The notes under the pieces: generated by a model
Database searches by the model: none
The model's input: the letters and a program-made list of their open reading frames with translations, nothing else
What the model was told of the DNA's origin: nothing
NCBI GenBank assembly: GCA_031364845.1
Contig: JANLWX010000169.1
Location: forward strand, 1 to 18,053
Length of the DNA stretch: 18,053 bases
Reading direction: 5' to 3'
Origin: Candidatus Eiseniibacteriota bacterium
GTDB lineage: Bacteria > Eisenbacteria > RBG-16-71-46
Translations under genes and position numbers: made by a program
Shown: in pieces, positions 8,525 through 18,053 of the stretch
Numbering within the stretch: the stretch's first letter is position 1
Layout: every line of letters begins with the position of its first letter

Positions 8525-9022
8525 TCATGTGCCCTCGCTCGCGGGATCGTTGGATACTTCCGCCTTGCGCCGTTTGCGCTGGAAGAACTCCCGCAGGATC
8601 GCGCCGCACTCCCCGGCGAGCACGCCCGAGGTGACCGGAACCCGGTGATTGAGCCGCGGCTCGTGGATGACGTCGAGCACCGAGCCGCACGCCCCGGCCT
8701 TCGGATCGTGAGCGCCGAACACCAGACGCCCCATCCGCGCGAGGATGATCGCCCCCGCGCACATCGCGCACGGCTCGAGCGTCACGTACATCGTGCACTC
8801 GTTGAGCCGCCACGAGCCGAGCGTGTTCGAGGCGGCGCCGATCGCGAGGATCTCCGCGTGCGCGGTCGCATCCTGCAGCCCTTCGGTCTGATTGTGCCCG
8901 CGTCCGATGACGAAACCGTCGTGGACGATCACGCATCCGACCGGAACCTCGTCACGCTCGCCGGACCGCTCGGCCTGCTGGAGTGCCGCGCGCATGCCGC
9001 GCTCGTCATCGAGAATCAGCAC
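8525..9022 (-). CDS. tadA: tRNA adenosine(34) deaminase TadA
   Basis: EVPVGCVIV, DATAHAE (HxE), LEPCAMC (PCxxC), DPKAGACGS, RLNHR and LREFF motifs. Start is likely GTG 9022 (alternative ATG 8995); the track extension to 9400 overlaps the upstream gene. Confidence 0.95.
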   Translation of the reverse strand: MLILDDERGMRAALQQAERSGERDEVPVGCVIVHDGFVIGRGHNQTEGLQDATAHAEILAIGAASNTLGSWRLNECTMYVTLEPCAMCAGAIILARMGRLVFGAHDPKAGACGSVLDVIHEPRLNHRVPVTSGVLAGECGAILREFFQRKRRKAEVSNDPASEGT

Positions 9023-9056
9023 GAGCGTGGTGCGACGCGAGCCCGGCGAAGCATGA

Positions 9057-9797
9057 CTAGCGAGTTCCGCCGGCCGCGGAATCCGATGCCGCGTGCTTCG
9101 CCGGGAACAGCTCGAGCCAGCGGGCGAACAGCGGCAGCACGACCTCGGGAAAACTCGGCGCGCCGGCCAGAGCGGTGATCGGCTTGGAATCGAGCCCCGA
9201 CGCGGTGACCCCGCCGATCGCGGCGTTCGGGCCGTGATCCGAACCTTCGCCTTTGTTGCTGCCGGATGCCGACCACACGAGCCGCCCGAGCGAGTCGACC
9301 AACGAGGCGCGGATCTGGACCTGCGTGAACGGCTTGCCGGTCTGGTTCCACTCGACCTGCTGTCGCTCCCATTGATCGACGCGCAGCGACAGCACGGCAT
9401 CGGAGCGCAGCCAGCCGCAAATCTGAGGAGCGGTGAGTGAATCGATGCGGTCGGCCTTGAGGATTCGAGCCTGCACCGCTTTCACGAGTGAATCGTTGCC
9501 GCCGCTGCGACTGCGCAGCAATTCCCGCGAGCTGCTCGCCGAGACCCAGCGATAACCGGTCTCGCGAAACGTCTGGCTGAACGCCTGCTCGACCACCTTC
9601 TGCGCTTCGAAGCTGTTGTCGAACGTCGCGATGGGGAGTACTGCGATCTTCTCGATGCCGAGCGCTGCGAAGTCGGGATGGACCCAGATCTTGTCGATCG
9701 CCTTGCCACGCTTGGGAGCGGCATTGCTTATCGGAGTCAGCAACGCGATGGCGGAGAGCGCGAGCAGAATGAGGCCGGCGATGATACGAAGCTTCAT
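9057..9797 (-). CDS. Secreted/periplasmic hypothetical protein (alpha/beta fold resembling DUF799/CsgG/TolB-N-like proteins)
   Basis: AAGGGG SD before ATG 9797; signal peptide MKLRIIAGLILLALSAIALLTPISNA; KIAVLP...DAVL...LVD...GRLVWSAS pattern. The fold call is an inference. Confidence 0.7.
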   Translation of the reverse strand: MKLRIIAGLILLALSAIALLTPISNAAPKRGKAIDKIWVHPDFAALGIEKIAVLPIATFDNSFEAQKVVEQAFSQTFRETGYRWVSASSSRELLRSRSGGNDSLVKAVQARILKADRIDSLTAPQICGWLRSDAVLSLRVDQWERQQVEWNQTGKPFTQVQIRASLVDSLGRLVWSASGSNKGEGSDHGPNAAIGGVTASGLDSKPITALAGAPSFPEVVLPLFARWLELFPAKHAASDSAAGGTR

Positions 9798-9926: not shown

Positions 9927-10003
9927 TGGCGCGCCCTGGAGGATTTGAACCCCCAACCTTCTGATCCGTAGTCAGATGCTCTATCCAATTGAGCTAAGGG
10001 CGC
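9927..10003 (-). tRNA. tRNA-Arg(ACG)
   Basis: GCGCCCTTAGCTCAATTGGATAGAGCATCTGACTACGGATCAGAAGGTTGGGGGTTCAAATCCTCCAGGGCGCGCCA, 77 nt; cloverleaf, anticodon loop CT-ACG-GA, encoded CCA. Confidence 0.98.
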
Positions 10004-10156: not shown

Positions 10157-10271
10157 AAAAATCGGTCATCGCGAGCGGAGCGTGGCGCCCGGATCCGCGG
10201 ATCTCCGAAGACATCTCGCGGCTGAGGGGGTCCAGATCCTGCGCTTGCGCCGACTGCTTTTGCGAGGAAGC

Positions 10272-10299
10272 ACCTTAGCCGATTTCGCGGCGCAGTCAA
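10272..10299 (-). promoter_or_regulatory. Putative sigma70 promoter of the tRNA-Ser(GCT)/tRNA-Arg(ACG) unit
   Basis: TTGACT (10299-10294) - 16 bp - TAAGGT (10277-10272). Confidence 0.6.
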
Positions 10300-10420
10300 A
10301 ACTGCCGGTTCGTGAACGATGCCGCACTGCGTACCGAGCGCGCGTTGCCGAGAACGCGCCGCAATTCAATGATTTGCCGCGCCGTCCGGATCACGGGAGC
10401 GCCTTCCGCGACTCGGAGCG

Positions 10421-10604
10421 AACCCCTGCGCAAACGATGCGCATCGGAAGCGGGGTTGGAGGGAAAACCTCTCCACACCACGGTTCTGCGGCGATGAGAG
10501 ATGACCGAGCGGGCTTTCCGATGGGGAGCTGATCCGGATGACCTCGGTCGGCAGAACCAGTGACACGATGCGGCCTCCTGCCAAACGGGAGGCCGCAATC
10601 TTTT
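10421..10604 (+). ncRNA. Candidate structured non-coding RNA, family not recognised
   Basis: Several adjacent or nested helices ending in a 12-bp hairpin plus ATCTTTT; G-U pairs favour the + strand; no credible ORF. Confidence 0.35.
10569..10604 (+). terminator. Intrinsic terminator-like hairpin (possibly bidirectional)
   Basis: TGCGGCCTCCTG-CCAAA-CGGGAGGCCGCA followed by ATCTTTT on +; also lies about 65 nt downstream of tRNA-Ser(TGA) on the minus strand. Confidence 0.6.
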
Positions 10605-10662
10605 GCAGGCGGCAGCTAGCTCGGCCGGCCCGGCTAGTTTCAGCAGGCCGGCATCCGGCGAA

Positions 10663-10748
10663 TGGCGGAGGGAGTAGGATTCGAACCCACGGAGCTTTCG
10701 CTCTCCGGTTTTCAAGACCGGCGCCTTAAACCACTCGGCCATCCCTCC
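10663..10748 (-). tRNA. tRNA-Ser(TGA), intact copy and integration site of the islet
   Basis: GGAGGGATGGCCGAGTGGTTTAAGGCGCCGGTCTTGAAAACCGGAGAGCGAAAGCTCCGTGGGTTCGAATCCTACTCCCTCCGCCA, 86 nt; anticodon loop CT-TGA-AA, variable arm, CCA. Confidence 0.98.
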
Positions 10749-10755
10749 CAAGACT
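10709..10755. repeat. 47-bp direct repeat, copy 1 (att site in the intact tRNA-Ser(TGA))
   Basis: TTTTCAAGACCGGCGCCTTAAACCACTCGGCCATCCCTCCCAAGACT, identical to 14710-14756. Confidence 0.97.
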
Positions 10756-10765
10756 GGCGGGACTT

Positions 10766-10794
10766 AACCTAGCCGATCCGGCTGAAGACGTCGA
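10766..10794 (-). promoter_or_regulatory. Putative islet-supplied replacement promoter for tRNA-Ser(TGA)
   Basis: TCGACG (10794-10789) - 17 bp - TAGGTT (10771-10766), with the -10 lying 17 nt upstream of the tRNA 5' end. Confidence 0.55.
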
Positions 10795-10877
10795 AAGCCT
10801 TGCGGATTACACTTTGGAGTATCCCTGCCCTGGGATCCGTTGCGCCTCCGCCTGCACACCGACCACAAGACATCGGC

Positions 10878-13800
10878 CTAACCGGCACTTTGCTTCACCG
10901 GCGGCGCGCCACATCCATATCCCTTAATAGTTTCCAGCAACTGCTTATACTCCGCCGGCGCTAATCGTTCATATGCCTCATCAATGGCCGCATTAAACCC
11001 CGGGCCTTCGGTCTCATCGCTGGGAATCACGCGTCCCCGCACGTTATTGTCTATTACGCTAACACAGTAACTCTTCCACCATGACGCGTAGCATTCAATC
11101 AGCTGAGTCCGTGGCAGGCCGAGGGCTCTCGCCTGGAGCGTAAAATTAAGACACACTCCGCTCCAGAAGGCGCCTGCAGCCTCACCATCGACTGCCTCAT
11201 CTGCGAAATCCGCAGCAACCTGAAGCCCAGTCGCCTGGACGAAACGCGCCAGATCTTCCCCACTGCCGCCTATTGCTCCCGGCTGCCGGTACCAACTCAT
11301 GGCTCCAAGTACTGACCCTGCGGTGTAAGCAACAATGCCTTGGTACCAGACGACAAAGTATGGTTGACGTCCCGCCTTCTGAACGGCTCCCGGAAAGTGA
11401 CCCGGCGATGCGACACAGCCATGCAGGCCATCCTCGGTGCGACCTATGCACCGCCCTGTTGCTGTCTCAATTTCAAACCAAGCGTAAGCGGATACACCTC
11501 CGATAAAAGTCCGTTCAGTCGGGATGCGCACGGACCACCTACCGTCCGCAAGCCTCTTCTCTATCAGGTTCCTTGCTTCTGATGTCAGGCCATTACAGCT
11601 ATCCAGAAGGGCTGCATTCTGATGAGTGACGGTAATAAGACCTCGATCAACTTCATGGTCGCAGTCACAAGCTGCTTTCAGGGTAATCTTTAATGGTACG
11701 GACGCATGTTCAGTAGGGGCGTCACAAATCATACGTTCGTAACCCACCGCCGATACTTCAAGGAGCCGCCCAGTCGCCGTGCCCATTAAGCCACGTAGCA
11801 CGTCTTGCAAAGCTTCCGCCGATGTCGTGCTAACGAAGATCCCGCCGCTCTTCGCAGCCAACAACTCCAAAGTTCGTCTTGCATTGCCGGAGTCAGGGAC
11901 CGCAAATCCGACCGTATGGATGACAATTCCTCCGCCTTCCTGATCGTAAACGGCGACCGGATCCGCCTCATCGGTATTCTCACCGTCCGTAAGTAGGATG
12001 CCAATCGTTGGGCGGTCCAGGGGGTCCTGTTTCCTAAGCTCCACAAGGCGTTCCACGACAGAGGCAATGGGCGTGGCCCCATCAGGTACTAACCCAGCCA
12101 CCGCCTGGGACATGCTGTGGAGAGTTGTCGTGAAATTCTGCTCTGTTCTGATGAGTAGTTCCTCGTCGCGGCCCGCTCCGGTAGTCGTGAATGACCACAG
12201 CGCCACTTCAGCGTCTATGCTGAAGTCTTTCGAAATGGTATCAATTGCTTTCACAACCTGATCGATGCGACGAACGCCATGTTCAGCGGGTACGGAGTCA
12301 GTTACGGACATTCCAAAGGCCATGCTGCCTGAACGGTCGATCGCGATGACTACGCGGGGCTTGAGGGCAACAGATTCGCTAGTATAAAAGTGTCCACTAC
12401 CGTCCGTCCGCCTAGAGCGCGAATCGGCTAGAGACCGGACAACAGCGTGGGGAATCCCCGCCTTATCATCTACCACTACCCCCGCCCTAACCGCGCTAAC
12501 AGATGCCAGAGTTACGCGAAGATCCTGCTGGTTCCACTTGCCGATAAGGCCTAGCGATCCACCTAAGATCGACACTTCAGCTTCCGTGTAATTGCCCGTC
12601 GGCAATAGCGTTTTCACCCTTTTTGAAAATGCTCTAATGGTCACATTGTGGCCCCCTATATCTACAAGCATCGGGACAGTAACCGGCAGGTTCTCGGCGG
12701 GCACGGCCATATGCGTCAGGCGCAGCAGCTGCCAATGCCCGTCAATGCCCCGCGCCAGGGCGGGGCCGTCTTGATTGTCAATGTTCCAAGAAACACCGGT
12801 GGATATATTTGTGGCCCTACCGACCACAAGACCGTCGCGCACTTCGACTCTAACACCAATCCGATATTTGTCTGCACCTTCCACCACGTCGTATATGGCT
12901 ACGGATCCGGGACGCAACATAAATCCGTCCTGAGCCCAGAGTGACCTGACCTCAAATCGAGGATCATATGATTTACTTGTTAGTGAGTTCGCGAGCACGG
13001 CGTCCACAATGGTCGCGCAGGCTTCACTGTCGGTACCGAACTCGACACTGTCCATGTCTGAGCCCACTTGAAACCGGTTTAGAACCCTGTCCGTTGGGAC
13101 CTCCGCCACTTCGCGAACACCGTGGGCAACAAGGCCTTGAGCACTGCGCACAATGCTGATTGGTGACGGCGTGGAGGGGCCCATAAGGACGCGAGACGAA
13201 CTCCCATTCAATTCCTCATATAGCAGGCGATCCAACTCACGTTCAAGCGTCCTCATACGCATTTCCGGAGCTTGCGCGGAGCGATTGAGGAAGTTGGAAA
13301 AGATTGTAGAAGCACTAACAACATCCTGCCCAGTGGCTCGATAGACGCATTCTGACTCGATAAGGTCGTTGCGAAGACCGCGGGCGAACTGGCATGCGAT
13401 AGCGTTACTGCCGACAATCGTGACGTCATTCGCAAGCACATCAAACGACAGTATCCCGCCAGATGCGACATCCCGCTTAGGTTGGCCTGCCGAATCGGGC
13501 ATCTCGAGGGCTATAATAGCTAGCCGCGGATCTAACCAAGACACGCGCGACTGCGTACTTGATGCGAATCCGTGCGTGGCCTCGTCGGAGGCCGTGAAAT
13601 AAGACATGCCGAGCATGGTGAGAGCTACAACAAGTGAGTCACAGACACCTTCACGTTGAAGGGCACCGAGAAGACGCCGGCGAGACTCGGCCGTTTGCGC
13701 AGTGTACGGACCGGTTGCCGTTGTAACACAATATATATCACCAGTCGAAGTTAAGCCGTGGCCAGCGACATTATCTGCAGGATCACGGCGGCGAAACAAT

Positions 13801-14540
13801 TCCCTATCTACTGATTGGCCCGTCGCGGGGGGGCTGAACTGTATCGATAGAGTAGCCCAATCGAACGGTCGGAGGTCGCTGGAGGTTGTAAGAGTTTCTC
13901 GACCTAGGTGAAGAGCGTACTGTACCCCGTTATTGATTGGAACTGTTGCGATCCACGCGGGTGTACAAATCCATTCTGCAACAAATGTTTGACGGGACCA
14001 ACGAGTGGTTTTGGAACCAAAGCCGTTGCGAACAAGATCGAAAGATATCTGCATAGGTCGAAGAGGGACAGCTTGCGAACGATCTATAGCACTCAAGGCG
14101 ACCCAATTAGTTCCGGCGTTGGCACGTCTCTCTGGTTTGTCGGCTTGTCCGAGCGCAATCACTATCCATTGATCTTGGTCCTTATAAGCGACTCTCGGTT
14201 GTGCCGCATCCGCAACGAGACGAGCGTGGTAGCCCGAGGCCTCCATCGCCGCAACGGCGAGCAGCGACCTATCCCATGCGTTGCCACCGCGTGACCAAAG
14301 AGTGCCGAATGGGCCGCGGACAACGTCGTTGTAAGTTTCGCGACTTAAGGAATCGCCGCAAAAGCGAATGATGCTTTGTGGATCTGTTCCAACTTCTGTT
14401 GCCACGGATGTAGGGAGAGCGAGCCAATAGGGCAACGTGTTTCTATTATGTGGCACCTTGAAAAATAGAACTGCCGCCACGACGATTGATGTGATGAGGG
14501 TCAAGATCCATAGGCGAGAGCTTGTCGCAAGGGAGCGCAA
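10878..14540 (-). CDS. Large membrane-anchored/secreted protein: transglutaminase-like N-terminal region, vWA domain with intact MIDAS, carboxypeptidase-regulatory-like beta-sandwich
   Basis: AGGAGG SD before TTG 14540. N-terminal hydrophobic helix. YNDVVRGPFGTLWSRGGNAWDRSLLAVAAMEASGYHARLV (transglutaminase-like). vWA motifs IAIDRSGSM, GATPI, ILLTDGE, IHTVGF and LAAKSGG. Confidence 0.85.
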   Translation of the reverse strand: MRSLATSSRLWILTLITSIVVAAVLFFKVPHNRNTLPYWLALPTSVATEVGTDPQSIIRFCGDSLSRETYNDVVRGPFGTLWSRGGNAWDRSLLAVAAMEASGYHARLVADAAQPRVAYKDQDQWIVIALGQADKPERRANAGTNWVALSAIDRSQAVPLRPMQISFDLVRNGFGSKTTRWSRQTFVAEWICTPAWIATVPINNGVQYALHLGRETLTTSSDLRPFDWATLSIQFSPPATGQSVDRELFRRRDPADNVAGHGLTSTGDIYCVTTATGPYTAQTAESRRRLLGALQREGVCDSLVVALTMLGMSYFTASDEATHGFASSTQSRVSWLDPRLAIIALEMPDSAGQPKRDVASGGILSFDVLANDVTIVGSNAIACQFARGLRNDLIESECVYRATGQDVVSASTIFSNFLNRSAQAPEMRMRTLERELDRLLYEELNGSSSRVLMGPSTPSPISIVRSAQGLVAHGVREVAEVPTDRVLNRFQVGSDMDSVEFGTDSEACATIVDAVLANSLTSKSYDPRFEVRSLWAQDGFMLRPGSVAIYDVVEGADKYRIGVRVEVRDGLVVGRATNISTGVSWNIDNQDGPALARGIDGHWQLLRLTHMAVPAENLPVTVPMLVDIGGHNVTIRAFSKRVKTLLPTGNYTEAEVSILGGSLGLIGKWNQQDLRVTLASVSAVRAGVVVDDKAGIPHAVVRSLADSRSRRTDGSGHFYTSESVALKPRVVIAIDRSGSMAFGMSVTDSVPAEHGVRRIDQVVKAIDTISKDFSIDAEVALWSFTTTGAGRDEELLIRTEQNFTTTLHSMSQAVAGLVPDGATPIASVVERLVELRKQDPLDRPTIGILLTDGENTDEADPVAVYDQEGGGIVIHTVGFAVPDSGNARRTLELLAAKSGGIFVSTTSAEALQDVLRGLMGTATGRLLEVSAVGYERMICDAPTEHASVPLKITLKAACDCDHEVDRGLITVTHQNAALLDSCNGLTSEARNLIEKRLADGRWSVRIPTERTFIGGVSAYAWFEIETATGRCIGRTEDGLHGCVASPGHFPGAVQKAGRQPYFVVWYQGIVAYTAGSVLGAMSWYRQPGAIGGSGEDLARFVQATGLQVAADFADEAVDGEAAGAFWSGVCLNFTLQARALGLPRTQLIECYASWWKSYCVSVIDNNVRGRVIPSDETEGPGFNAAIDEAYERLAPAEYKQLLETIKGYGCGAPPVKQSAG

Positions 14541-14709
14541 ATCGTACCCCTCCTTCGTTCACAAGCGTGCGTTGCACCTGCGCCATCGGCCAGAACTGTT
14601 GCGAGGAGAGCACGCGTTTGCAAGTAATGCAACCCCATTCAAGACCTCGATTTGGGGCTGTGCGCTCACACCGTCTTAGGCGGCGAACCGGCACAAAGGT
14701 CTGATCAGC

Positions 14710-14756
14710 TTTTCAAGACCGGCGCCTTAAACCACTCGGCCATCCCTCCCAAGACT
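14710..14756 (-). pseudogene. 47-bp direct repeat, copy 2: displaced 5' half of tRNA-Ser(TGA) (first 40 nt plus 7 nt of leader)
   Basis: On the minus strand reads AGTCTTG-GGAGGGATGGCCGAGTGGTTTAAGGCGCCGGTCTTGAAAA, then diverges (GCTGATCAG); no T arm or acceptor 3' strand follows. Confidence 0.95.
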
Positions 14757-14765
14757 TGGGGGCCG

Positions 14766-14794
14766 ATCCTAGCGGGACACGCCAGATGTATCCA
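14766..14794 (-). promoter_or_regulatory. Putative native tRNA-Ser promoter, now facing the half-tRNA and the islet cargo
   Basis: TGGATA (14794-14789) - 17 bp - TAGGAT (14771-14766), with the -10 lying 16 nt upstream of the half-tRNA; spans the rtcB start codon on the opposite strand. Confidence 0.5.
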
Positions 14795-15973
14795 CTATTC
14801 CCCAAAGCCATAGGCTTCCTCCCGGCCGCCGACATCGAGCCGCAGGCGCTGGTGCAGATCCGCAACGTGTCCGAGCTGCCGATCATCTTCCGGCACGTGG
14901 CGGTGATGCCCGACTGCCATCTCGGCATCGGAGCGACCATCGGCAGTGTGATCGCGACGCGTGACGCGGTCATCCCGGCGGCGGTCGGAGTCGACATCGG
15001 GTGCGGCATGATCGCGGTGCGCACGCCGTTTCCCGCTTCGAGCCTGCCCGCGGATCTGGCCGCGATCCGTCGCGGCATCGAAGGCCGGATCCCCTCCTCC
15101 GTGGGTAATTACAACGACGTGATCACACCGACTGCCGCAGCCCGCATCGCGGCGCTCGAAACACTCGCGGCGGCGGATGGCGTGAAGCCCGATCACTACG
15201 ATTCCAAGTGGAGGGTTCAACTCGGCTCACTCGGCGGCGGCAATCACTTCATCGAAGTCTGCGCGGACCTGCGCGATGACGTGTGGCTCGTGCTGCACTC
15301 GGGATCGCGGGGAGTCGGCAACAAGATCGCGCAAAAGTACATCGCCGCGGCCAAGCGGTTGATGGATCAGTCGGGGCTGACCCTCGCAGACAGGAACCTC
15401 GCCTATCTCCCGCAGGATTCGCCGTTGTTCGATCCCTATCTCAAAGCGCTCCACTGGGCGCAGGAGTTCGCGCGGCACAACCGTGACGAGATGATGGATC
15501 GAGTGCTCGAGGAAATGAGCGGGCGGTTCGAAGGCGCCGTCGGACATCCGGGCGAGCTCGAATCCGAGCGCATCAACTGCCACCACAACTTCGTCCAGCG
15601 CGAGCATCACTTCGGTGAGGACGTGTGGGTCACGCGCAAGGGCGCGATCCAGGCGCGAGCCGGGATGAAAGCCGTGATCCCGGGATCGATGGGCACGCGC
15701 AGCTACATCGTTTCGGGCCTCGGCAACTCGATGGCGTTCGAATCCGCGCCCCACGGCGCCGGCCGCCGTTTCTCGCGGACCGAAGCGCGGCGCCGCTTCA
15801 CGCTCGGCGATCTGAGCGAGCAGATGTCGGGGATCGAGTACCGGCACGAGAAAGGACTGCTCGATGAGATCCCGAGCGCGTACAAGGACATCGACCAGGT
15901 CATGGAGCACAGCCGGGATCTGGTGACGATCGAGCACACGCTGAGGCAGTTGATCAACGTGAAGGGTAACTAG
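14786..15973 (+). CDS. rtcB: RNA ligase RtcB (3'-phosphate/5'-OH ligase)
   Basis: VMPDCHLG, VGVDIGCGM, LGSLGGGNHFIE, LHSGSRG, CHHNF, RKGA, IPGSMG, SAPHGAGR and DEIPSAYKDI motifs. ATG 14786 preferred to TTG 14756, which touches the att repeat. Confidence 0.97.
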   Translation: MYPLFPKAIGFLPAADIEPQALVQIRNVSELPIIFRHVAVMPDCHLGIGATIGSVIATRDAVIPAAVGVDIGCGMIAVRTPFPASSLPADLAAIRRGIEGRIPSSVGNYNDVITPTAAARIAALETLAAADGVKPDHYDSKWRVQLGSLGGGNHFIEVCADLRDDVWLVLHSGSRGVGNKIAQKYIAAAKRLMDQSGLTLADRNLAYLPQDSPLFDPYLKALHWAQEFARHNRDEMMDRVLEEMSGRFEGAVGHPGELESERINCHHNFVQREHHFGEDVWVTRKGAIQARAGMKAVIPGSMGTRSYIVSGLGNSMAFESAPHGAGRRFSRTEARRRFTLGDLSEQMSGIEYRHEKGLLDEIPSAYKDIDQVMEHSRDLVTIEHTLRQLINVKGN

Positions 15974-16461: not shown

Positions 16462-18053
16462 ATGTTCCGTCGTGTCGTGCCCGTATTCATCCTGTCCGCC
16501 CTGCTCGTCTCCGGCTCCGTCGCCCATGGCGCGGGCTCGCGTCTCGACGGAAAGGTCGTGCCGACTCAGCAGGCGATCCGGCTCTCGATCGAGGCTAATC
16601 AGGCGCAGTACCGCGGCTCCGTCCGGATCGATCTTCAAGTCCGCGAACGCACCGACCGCTTTCGCTTTCACTCGAACGGTCCCGAGTTCACCGCCCTCCA
16701 GCTACGCTCGGCTTCGCGCGTCTATCGCATCGACGTGGTGCCGGAGTCCGAGGGCGTCGTCGTCGCGCGCGTCGCGCCGATGCTCGAGCCGGGCGCCTAC
16801 ACGCTCGTCATCGACTTCACGAACACGCTCGACACGTTGGGGTCGGGCCTTTACCGGCTCGCCGTGGAAGGCAGGAGCTACGCGTTCTCGCAGTTCGAAC
16901 CGGCCGCTGCGCGCAAGGCGTTTCCGTGCTGGGACGAACCGGAGTTCAAGATTCCCTGGCAGCTCACGCTGATCGTGCCCCGTGATCATCTCGCGCTTTC
17001 GAACACGCCGATCGAGCGCGAGAACGAGTTCGGCGATCAGAAGACCGTCGTGTTCAAGCAGAGCCCGCCGATGCCGTCGTACCTCGTGGCATTGGCGGCC
17101 GGACCGTTGGAGACCGTTGAGATCCCGGGGCTCACGGTGCCGGGACGCATCGTCACGGTGGCCGGGCGCTCAGGGCTCGCGAGCACCGCGGCCGCCCGCG
17201 TGCCGTCGCTGCTCAAGTCCCTCGAGGACTACTTCGGCCAGCCGTATCCCTACGAGAAGCTCGACATCATTGCAGTGCCCGAGTTCCCTTACGGCGCGAT
17301 GGAGAATCCGGGAGCGATCACGTTCGCCGACCGCATTCTGCTCGCCGACCCCGCCGAAGCCACACCCCCGCGCCTGCGCGCGCTCACCGAGATCATGGCG
17401 CACGAGATCGCCCACATGTGGTTCGGCAATCTCGTCACGATCCGCTGGTGGGATGATCTGTGGCTCAAGGAATCCTTCGCTTCATGGATGGGCGACAAGA
17501 TCGCGGATCAGGTGCACCCGGAGTTCAACACCGGCCGCGGCGACGTCGCCGCCGCGAATCAGGCGATGCGCCTCGACGCGCTGGCCTCGACGCACGCGAT
17601 GCGGCGCCCGGTTGCGGCCGCCGAGGATCTCGGCCGGCTCGCCGACGATCTCGCCTACGACAAGGGTCAATCGGTGCTCGGCATGTTCGAGCAGTGGCTG
17701 AGCCCCGGGGTGTTCCAGGCAGGGATCAGCCGCTACCTGCAGAAGCACGAGTGGAGGAACGCAAGCGCGAGCGACCTGTGGCGCGCGCTCGGCGAGGCGG
17801 CGGGCACCGACGTCGGCCGCTCGATGAGCACGTTCCTCGACCAGCCCGGCGTGCCGCTCGTCACCTGCCAGTTGCTGGCGGACGGGCGGGTGCAGCTGAA
17901 TCAGAAGCGCTATCGCGAACACGGTCATGCGGGTGTCGACCGGGCGCGCTGGAGCATCCCGGTCGCGCTGAGATACTCGGACGGAAACACGACCGGCCAG
18001 ATGACGGTGCTGCTGACGGAACCGATGCAGACCTTCGCGGTGCCGACCGCAGC
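16462..18053 (+). CDS. Secreted M1-family zinc aminopeptidase (aminopeptidase N-like), 3' end runs off the window
   Basis: Not in the ORF track. ATG 16462 after GGGGGA; signal peptide MFRRVVPVFILSALLVSGSVAHG; SQFEPAAARKAFPCWDEP, GAMEN (~17293), HEIAH-x18-E (17401 onward) and AYDKG, all in one frame. Confidence 0.95.
   Translation, partial: MFRRVVPVFILSALLVSGSVAHGAGSRLDGKVVPTQQAIRLSIEANQAQYRGSVRIDLQVRERTDRFRFHSNGPEFTALQLRSASRVYRIDVVPESEGVVVARVAPMLEPGAYTLVIDFTNTLDTLGSGLYRLAVEGRSYAFSQFEPAAARKAFPCWDEPEFKIPWQLTLIVPRDHLALSNTPIERENEFGDQKTVVFKQSPPMPSYLVALAAGPLETVEIPGLTVPGRIVTVAGRSGLASTAAARVPSLLKSLEDYFGQPYPYEKLDIIAVPEFPYGAMENPGAITFADRILLADPAEATPPRLRALTEIMAHEIAHMWFGNLVTIRWWDDLWLKESFASWMGDKIADQVHPEFNTGRGDVAAANQAMRLDALASTHAMRRPVAAAEDLGRLADDLAYDKGQSVLGMFEQWLSPGVFQAGISRYLQKHEWRNASASDLWRALGEAAGTDVGRSMSTFLDQPGVPLVTCQLLADGRVQLNQKRYREHGHAGVDRARWSIPVALRYSDGNTTGQMTVLLTEPMQTFAVPTA

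Follow-up and report, generated by a model that had tools for sequence, protein, structure and literature searches.

How a short piece of foreign DNA with a single gene and no integrase could come to lie against the 5' side of a transfer RNA (tRNA) gene is the question raised by the window analysed here, an 18,053-nucleotide (nt) stretch of Candidatus Eiseniibacteriota DNA (contig JANLWX010000169.1, assembly GCA_031364845.1). The window spans all of contig C138, one of 233 contigs in a metagenome-assembled genome (MAG) of 97% completeness, here called G000, and the 4-kb element in question, the islet, adjoins tRNA-Ser(TGA). It is best read as an integrase-less member, similar to the cis-mobilisable elements (CIMEs), of a family of 5'-side islands that target the anticodon loop of tRNA genes. 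We give about an even chance to an insertion in which a tyrosine integrase encoded outside the islet carried out site-specific recombination in the anticodon loop of tRNA-Ser(TGA). The locus is laid out as follows (window coordinates):

10663..10748, minus strand: intact tRNA-Ser(TGA), the first gene of a Ser(TGA)-Ser(GCT)-Arg(ACG) cluster (ARAGORN)
10709..10755, minus strand: repeat copy 1, tRNA nt 1-40 plus 7 nt of leader, within the working tRNA (repeat search, BLAST)
10756..10877, minus strand: tRNA-proximal islet end, 122 bp (direct reading)
10878..14540, minus strand: cargo gene P0001, 1220 amino acids (open reading frame list, Pfam, HMMER)
14541..14709, minus strand: distal islet end, 169 bp, with the ribosome-binding site of the cargo gene (direct reading)
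14710..14756, minus strand: repeat copy 2, an orphan 5' half of tRNA-Ser(TGA) plus 7 nt of leader (repeat search, BLAST)
14766..14772, minus strand: -10-like CTAGGAT upstream of the orphan half (by resemblance; putative function)
14787..15973, plus strand: rtcB RNA ligase gene, divergent from the orphan half, in the outer flank and outside the islet (Pfam RtcB, E 2.5e-118)

A repeat search and direct reading found the two repeat copies identical at 47 of 47 positions, and a whole-genome self-BLAST returned the same 47-bp pair at 100% identity; an exact repeat of this length is far beyond chance. In the direction of the tRNA, the repeat comprises 7 nt of leader (10749-10755) and nt 1-40 of tRNA-Ser(TGA), and its last base, one beyond the 7-nt loop CUUGAAA, opens the 3' arm of the anticodon stem. 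ARAGORN placed tRNA-Ser(TGA), tRNA-Ser(GCT) and tRNA-Arg(ACG) on the minus strand of the window, and the same three-tRNA cluster is present at eight related loci. The 3,954 bp between the repeat copies (10756-14709) hold a single long open reading frame, leaving 122 bp of other DNA at one end and 169 bp at the other. The guanine-plus-cytosine (GC) content is 0.53-0.58 inside the islet versus 0.63-0.70 outside (0.553 and 0.649 in a second computation), and the step coincides with the repeats. The insertion is considered young because the repeat is perfect and the GC step is sharp. At the distal islet end the tRNA sequence switches to GCTGATCAG right past the loop. A whole-genome search with PF00589 matched no tyrosine-recombinase domain on the window contig, tblastn with five integrases of the family described below found no remnant at either islet end (best E 0.39), and no further copy of the islet was found in G000. 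The original prediction, which had described a perfect 47-bp repeat of leader and tRNA nt 1-40 ending one base past the loop, enclosing lower-GC DNA that is almost entirely one reading frame with small ends and no recombinase, is thus borne out.

On the integration model, the geometry suggests that repeat copy 1 was supplied by the islet and that copy 2 is the displaced host copy. A -10-like element stands at the same distance from both copies: CTAGGTT at 10766-10772 (plus strand), 17 nt before tRNA nt 1, and CTAGGAT at 14766-14772. The latter is presumed to be the original tRNA promoter, now aimed into the cargo gene, and a promoter role for CTAGGTT is suggested by similar TAnnnT elements upstream of tRNA-Ser(TGA) in relatives.

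Such a duplication could also be an artefact of assembly, for example a circle or the contig of another strain stitched in at the shared 47-mer, and the 233 contigs of the MAG leave some room for this. Excision was looked for in Logan contigs (k=31) from four runs of one study, in which the integrated form gives the same contigs as a circle plus an empty site. In run X1, possibly from the source sample, the contigs break inside the repeat and both islet ends join repeat sequence, and these joints fit the integrated form and the circle equally. Run X2, from a different sample, contained one 1758-nt contig in which the rtcB flank and the repeat are followed directly by 46 nt of the tRNA 3' half, with 4001 bases skipped, as along an empty site; no X2 contig lies on 14600-14709, and the depth is approximately 3-5x. 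This contig may itself be a graph artefact, because k=31 is below the 47 bp of the repeat, the depth is low, the words of the tRNA are common to many organisms of the sample and 14600-14709 has no contig, and it is counted as no support for excision. Misassembly of the islet is nevertheless extremely improbable. The MAG contig crosses both repeat copies, each of which has unique sequence on either side, ordinary reads are longer than the 47-bp repeat, independent assemblies of three other genomes (G032, G038 and G001) show the same architecture, and the islet contigs, including those of X2, match the window without differences in two samples.

Comparison with relatives indicates that the islet is foreign and that its site is used repeatedly. 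The P0001 protein was found in none of 60 relatives, from genus to class. The M1 peptidase gene at window position 16462 has orthologues in 17 of 25 relatives, and in G013, a one-contig genome, and G009 it lies approximately 200-230 bp from the 5' end of tRNA-Ser(TGA), so the site is empty in both. The same interval holds unrelated genes in other relatives, 2.2 kb in G003 and G014, 7.7 kb in G001 (a member of the same genus) and 9.5 kb in G004. The interval upstream of tRNA-Ser(TGA) is therefore a hotspot. These results support the original reading of the DNA as an inserted islet. The empty-site check that had been proposed, rtcB directly next to an intact tRNA-Ser(TGA), held in part: empty sites exist, but that adjacency is absent from relatives because rtcB was found in only 1 of 40, and it was seen only as the ambiguous X2 contig. 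The idea that rtcB is a second islet, marked by an older decayed tRNA half before the M1 peptidase gene, was rejected, as the local alignment was no better than shuffles.

The break in the anticodon loop recurs well beyond the window. A 106-nt query across tRNA-Ser(TGA) had matches in 83 of 102 genomes of the order, and orphan 5' halves of this tRNA were found in 17 places in other genomes of the class. In all 14 of the orphan halves that were read, the similarity to the tRNA ends in the loop or at most 3 nt after it, with different DNA beyond the break in each, and they therefore represent separate events. Two orphan halves share a contig with an intact tRNA-Ser(TGA) and thus delimit complete islets. 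The islet of G032 is 2.9 kb long and has an imperfect repeat of approximately 220 bp that reaches 177 nt upstream of the tRNA; that of G038 is 4.0 kb long and carries a tricorn-protease gene, a claim that rests on unpublished data, since the G038 genome is flagged as such. Neither an integrase nor a remnant of one was found in the G032 and G038 islets, so that none of the three complete tRNA-Ser(TGA) islets (G000, G032, G038) has either. Genes seen in the DNA beside orphan tRNA-Ser(TGA) fragments include a CAP12/Pycsar-type TIR protein, a set of MerR, heavy-metal-associated and thioredoxin genes, and an AbiEii toxin (L073, G021:C343; L074, G095:C153; L087, G161:C136).

The same boundary is found at other tRNA genes of G000. 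BLAST of all 48 tRNAs against the genome gave 11 fragments, nine of them bounded at tRNA nt 32-45. At this boundary are 5' halves of Ser-TGA, Ser-CGA and Arg-CCT (two copies), and 3' parts of Lys-CTT (two copies), Arg-CCT, Leu-TAA and Ser-CGA. The two kinds of fragment overlap in the anticodon stem-loop, which is what would be expected of an anticodon-centred attachment site of a tyrosine recombinase. The crossover in the anticodon loop that the original prediction had proposed is supported by this recurrence, in the relatives and in G000 alike.

It also bears on whether a site-specific enzyme was needed at all. A circle carrying a copy of the tRNA 5' region could have entered by a single homologous crossover, leaving a long target duplication, and the G032 repeat, which extends far upstream of the tRNA, fits such an event. 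Insertion with long target duplication, reportedly described by Nobusato in 2000 and by Furuta in 2010, resembles the islet in that foreign genes lie in a direct duplication of the target (tens to hundreds of bp) without a recombinase. The islet differs in that one edge of its duplication is tied to the anticodon loop, an established recombinase target, and that the genome contains a matching integrase family. Furthermore, 47 bp is short for a RecA-type crossover, and chance homology would not stop at the loop every time, as the duplication edge does in the 14 orphan halves, in the nine G000 fragments and in the integrase-bearing element of G001 described next. Homologous crossover is accordingly judged unlikely.

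The probable enzyme family for site-specific insertion is present in the lineage. In G039, a 98%-complete MAG, an intact gene for a 324-residue tyrosine recombinase lies approximately 60 nt from a 3' part of tRNA-Ser(TGA) whose first bases are GTCTTGAAAA. G001 is the one other genome from the genus of G000; in it, an integrase gene 55% identical to that of G039 ends 30 nt before an intact tRNA-Ser(CGA). A perfect 45-bp repeat at this locus (G001:C17) consists of 4 nt of leader and tRNA-Ser(CGA) nt 1-41, with its second copy 12 kb upstream, and the genes between the copies are those for GmrSD, a primase-polymerase/D5 helicase, a resolvase and the integrase. In front of each repeat copy, the native upstream element is present in diverged form. 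This 12-kb element is the integrase-bearing counterpart of the window islet, with the same repeat composition on the same side. The displaced tRNA fragment has a second integrase of the family 56 nt upstream of it, and the locus is therefore a tandem array; its order (G001:C17:2386-15352; L109, L090) is older integrase, displaced 41-nt 5' half, 12-kb element and intact tRNA-Ser(CGA). In G039, the 3' part of tRNA-Ser(TGA) beside the integrase is on contig C102 (L091 9940-11040) and a 5' half is on another, C107 (L061 4923-4962), with only the core GTCTTGAAAA common to both. No intact tRNA-Ser(TGA) was detected in G039, so the gene is either split or present between two islands as an intact copy that was left unassembled.

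At E<=1e-40, 54 of 102 genomes of the order have a member of the integrase family. An intact tRNA in the same direction follows within 100 nt at 14 of the 30 best loci (Ser-CGA in nine, Ser-TGA in two, G101 and G049, Cys-GCA in two and Arg-CCT in one), and at 292-508 nt at three more. The distance from the end of the integrase gene to the tRNA is 27-83 nt in intact elements. When one genome per species was scanned, 57 integrase loci were obtained: 23 with a co-directional tRNA, six with a convergent tRNA (the conventional geometry), 25 without an intact tRNA within 600 nt, two cut by a contig end, and the 3'-fragment case of G039. These two counts are not independent because their genomes overlap. 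The carriers in the species scan are mostly titled Candidatus Eisenbacteria. At tRNA-Ser(TGA) itself, the G101 integrase lies on a contig that stops 1.2 kb upstream, so that the far end is not reached, the G049 integrase carries a stop codon, with no fragment reported there, and C-terminal integrase remnants lie beside tRNA-Ser(TGA) or its halves in G044 and G046. In NCBIfam the family scores below the cut-offs of the Xer and integron integrase models; it appears Xer-like and is the likely enzyme family for the islet. Just past the integrase stop codon stand pairs of 8-10-nt direct repeats with a spacing of approximately 12-13 nt, which differ among elements (TTCGGTAGCA, CGTACCCA and AACGGGACAG, each twice; examples at L090 9880-9930, G000:C87 720-745 and G000:C34 43575-43600) and resemble arm-type binding sites. 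In the tRNA-proximal end of the islet, a weaker pair, the imperfect direct repeat GGCCGATGT / GGTCGGTGT, directly follows the cargo stop codon.

G000 has three integrases of this family, all on contigs other than that of the window, as the earlier suggestion of a tyrosine recombinase elsewhere would have it. The first (C87:3-623; 55-56% identity) is truncated at the contig start, with CTCGAAAA and the 3' part of tRNA-Ser(CGA) 160 nt past its end; the second is on C200 (46-47% identity), and the third, on C34 (42-45% identity), lies beside tRNA-Lys(CTT). C231 carries an integrase remnant 43 nt upstream of an intact tRNA-Ser(CGA). In a maximum-likelihood tree of 18 integrases, Ser-TGA enzymes are interspersed with Ser-CGA and Cys-GCA ones, and the C87 enzyme groups with the Ser-TGA enzyme of G101 and the Ser-CGA enzyme of G001 with moderate support (85/89). 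The anticodon loops of tRNA-Ser(TGA) and tRNA-Ser(CGA) are one base apart. Given this grouping and the one-base difference, the C87 integrase may be the nearest candidate helper. None of the four complete tRNA-fragment-bounded islets of G000 has an intact integrase:

C138: 4.0 kb, at tRNA-Ser(TGA), the window islet
C111:3328-6499: 3.1 kb, at tRNA-Arg(CCT)
C226:4344-13424: 9.0 kb, at tRNA-Leu(TAA), with a Kelch-repeat protein and a stray tRNA-Arg(CCT) 5' half
C231:152-7088: 6.8 kb, at tRNA-Ser(CGA), with three beta-helix secreted proteins
C152:8368-8405: a further locus, grouped with these four tRNA-fragment-bounded islets

Taken together, the following sequence of events is proposed. The islet would have arrived as a circle with an attachment site (attP) made of promoter, leader, tRNA nt 1-40 and loop. 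A crossover in the loop would have joined the 5' half of the islet to the 3' half of the host gene, so that tRNA-Ser(TGA) and the two tRNAs downstream of it would stay expressed, driven from CTAGGTT of the islet. The host promoter and 5' half would have been pushed 4 kb upstream, where they would face a cargo gene of the same orientation. Since the islet has no integrase, the enzyme probably acted in trans, and may have come from a co-resident element or from a tandem partner that has since gone (the accretion and cis-mobilisation described for CIMEs). Renewed movement of the islet would require a helper of this kind.

Arrival without an integrase of its own, through accretion with an integrase-bearing partner or capture by one, is preferred here to loss in place, which is a serious rival. 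According to the latter, the islet is what remains of a 5'-side island that used to be autonomous, after the integrase and everything except the von Willebrand factor A (vWA) gene were deleted. Decay of this kind is common, with C-terminal integrase remnants beside tRNA-Ser(CGA) in G000 (C231), upstream of the displaced fragment in G001 and beside tRNA-Ser(TGA) in G044 and G046, and with the interrupted integrase of G049; moreover, CIMEs are defined as decayed elements that retain attL and attR (PMC5704250). However, intact elements end their integrase close to the tRNA and decayed ones keep its last 40-50 codons there, whereas the 122 bp and the C-terminus of the cargo gene show nothing of the sort. 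Because the islet lacks these codons although it is young, and because the other two complete tRNA-Ser(TGA) islets also lack remnants, arrival without an integrase is favoured. An insertion as young as the perfect repeat and sharp GC step indicate would need a deletion that was already complete and exact. Loss in place is thus considered rather doubtful, if more credible than a homologous crossover.

Several observations weigh against insertion by an integrase acting in trans. No recombination was observed in the k=31 contigs, whose word length is below the 47 bp of the repeat, so that the integrated form and a circle plus an empty site look alike in them. Any action of a G000 integrase on tRNA-Ser(TGA) is hypothetical, and the nearest of these enzymes, that of C87, is truncated and located at tRNA-Ser(CGA). 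The repeat of approximately 220 bp in G032 resembles captured chromosomal DNA or homologous recombination more than a compact attP. A sigma-70 consensus scan flagged neither presumed tRNA promoter, both of which were assigned by resemblance.

Integration on the 5' side of tRNA genes is uncommon but known, and integrase-less elements flanked by att sites are known as CIMEs. Table 1 of the Islander survey gives 159 of 3919 islands with a 5' fragment and 3760 with a 3' fragment, together with 2083 anticodon-centred sites (PMC4383910), in line with the original description of the 5'-side geometry as uncommon. In that survey a 5' fragment must lie upstream of the tRNA gene (PMC4383910). In the window, the intact tRNA gene and its cognate end fragment are on the same strand (nt 1-40 recur at 14710-14749), with the fragment 4 kb upstream in the tRNA's own direction, and the DNA between them is foreign by the absence of the cargo from the 60 relatives, the empty sites of G013 and G009 and the drop in GC content. 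The islet therefore resembles the 5'-fragment islands of Islander in its intact gene, same-orientation 5' half upstream, anticodon-loop break and intervening foreign DNA. It differs in having no integrase in the interval (no PF00589 match on the contig, vWA as the only Pfam domain and a best tblastn E of 0.39), where the survey, as its description states, requires one, and at 4 kb and one gene it is near the survey's 2-kb lower limit.

CIMEs keep their att sites and are expected to be mobile only after integration, next to them, of a related element whose integrase matches (PMC5704250). Like CIMEs, for example those related to ICESt1/ICESt3 of Streptococcus thermophilus, the islet has attL- and attR-like flanks, namely the perfect 47-bp repeat with its inner edge at the loop as in the G001 element, and no genes for integration or transfer, with no remnant to show their former presence. 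In contrast, known CIMEs lie at the 3' ends of protein or tRNA genes with traces of a parent integrative and conjugative element, whereas the islet is at a tRNA 5' half with no parent trace and no conjugation genes in view. On its sequence features, the islet thus appears to lack what defines an autonomous island and to have the structure of a CIME. The tycheposons of Prochlorococcus are described as lying at a few tRNA genes with partial-tRNA flanks and in arrays with degenerated fragments, and tRNA-Ser(TGA) is among the tRNAs labelled in a figure legend (bioRxiv 10.1101/2020.12.28.424599). The islet likewise has its cargo at a tRNA gene between partial-tRNA flanks, but tycheposons, as that account defines them, carry their own integrase and usually replication genes, and the single reading frame of the islet, with its vWA domain only, provides neither. 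An integron gene cassette was considered and rejected: the repeats are tRNA sequence and not attC, the contig has no integrase, and the family integrases score far below the integron-integrase cut-offs.

The cargo gene P0001 has a TTG start with AAGGAGG 8 nt upstream. Pfam identified a vWA domain only (residues 730-914). Other features of the protein are an N-terminal segment that is hydrophobic, a stretch with distant resemblance to a transglutaminase core, and a C-terminal region that is conserved but has no known function. When 1.84 billion representatives were scanned in full with HMMER, 31 proteins scored E<=1e-30, the best match other than P0001 itself at 34-37% identity, and approximately 15 of the 31 are full-length homologues at 30-37% identity. 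P0001 is therefore not an orphan. Homologues also carry the vWA domain (Pfam), and one distant match aligned its transglutaminase core to the N-terminal region. The family is thinly spread and made up of large proteins of unknown function that are probably anchored in the membrane. A word-based search of 5.8 billion proteins matched P0001 to itself only, its N-terminal 700 residues gave no match as a query, a scan of genome contigs found none, the ESM Atlas gave no usable match, PADLOC matched no defence-system model, and NCBIfam gave a sub-threshold match only. A similarity of residues 35-136 to KomC, a SIR2-domain NADase, in the PDB (E 0.0013, 19.6 bits) was set aside as too weak to use.

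The surroundings of the islet contain further features of note. The orphan tRNA half, which ends at the anticodon loop, is 30 bp from the divergent start of rtcB (ATG at 14787 by reading of the sequence; the listed open reading frame begins at 14756). RtcB is an RNA ligase that rejoins tRNA halves cut in the anticodon loop; the placement of the half beside its gene is probably a coincidence. On the other side, the spacer between tRNA-Ser(GCT) and tRNA-Ser(TGA) is 506 bp long (10157-10662); in most relatives it measures approximately 10 nt, and in G001, of the same genus, 450 nt. In the window it contains an open reading frame of 116 residues (10182-10532, plus strand) without a Pfam match, followed by a strong terminator-like hairpin (10569-10597). 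A gene for a TadA-like tRNA adenosine deaminase (8525-9400, minus strand; MafB19-deam and dCMP_cyt_deam_1) adjoins tRNA-Arg(ACG) (9927-10003, minus strand), and tRNA-Arg(ACG) is the substrate of such deaminases.

A broader proposal is that in this candidate phylum tRNA genes serve as integron-like docking platforms, and that small integrase-less cassettes with one or a few genes, and with a promoter and a tRNA 5' half for an attachment site, would routinely enter and leave the anticodon loops through Xer-like integrases scattered over the chromosome, with the displaced host promoter expressing the cargo. The lack of an intact integrase in all four complete G000 islets and of a remnant in all three at tRNA-Ser(TGA) speaks for it, and so does the orientation of the cargo, which in two of the latter three is read the way the displaced promoter points; as a whole we think it quite improbable. 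The islet itself is a clean, recent and precisely bounded case of rare 5'-side tRNA integration in an uncultured lineage, and it comes with a probable enzyme family and an intact 12-kb reference element from the same genus. It is recorded mainly for that integrase family and for the abundance of integrase-less islets in the lineage, most of which, in G000, would be missed by pipelines that require an integrase inside an island. If such islets are mobile with a helper, the tRNA sites would form a simple system of gene capture, and the integrases of the family would be candidate tools for site-specific insertion that restores its target.

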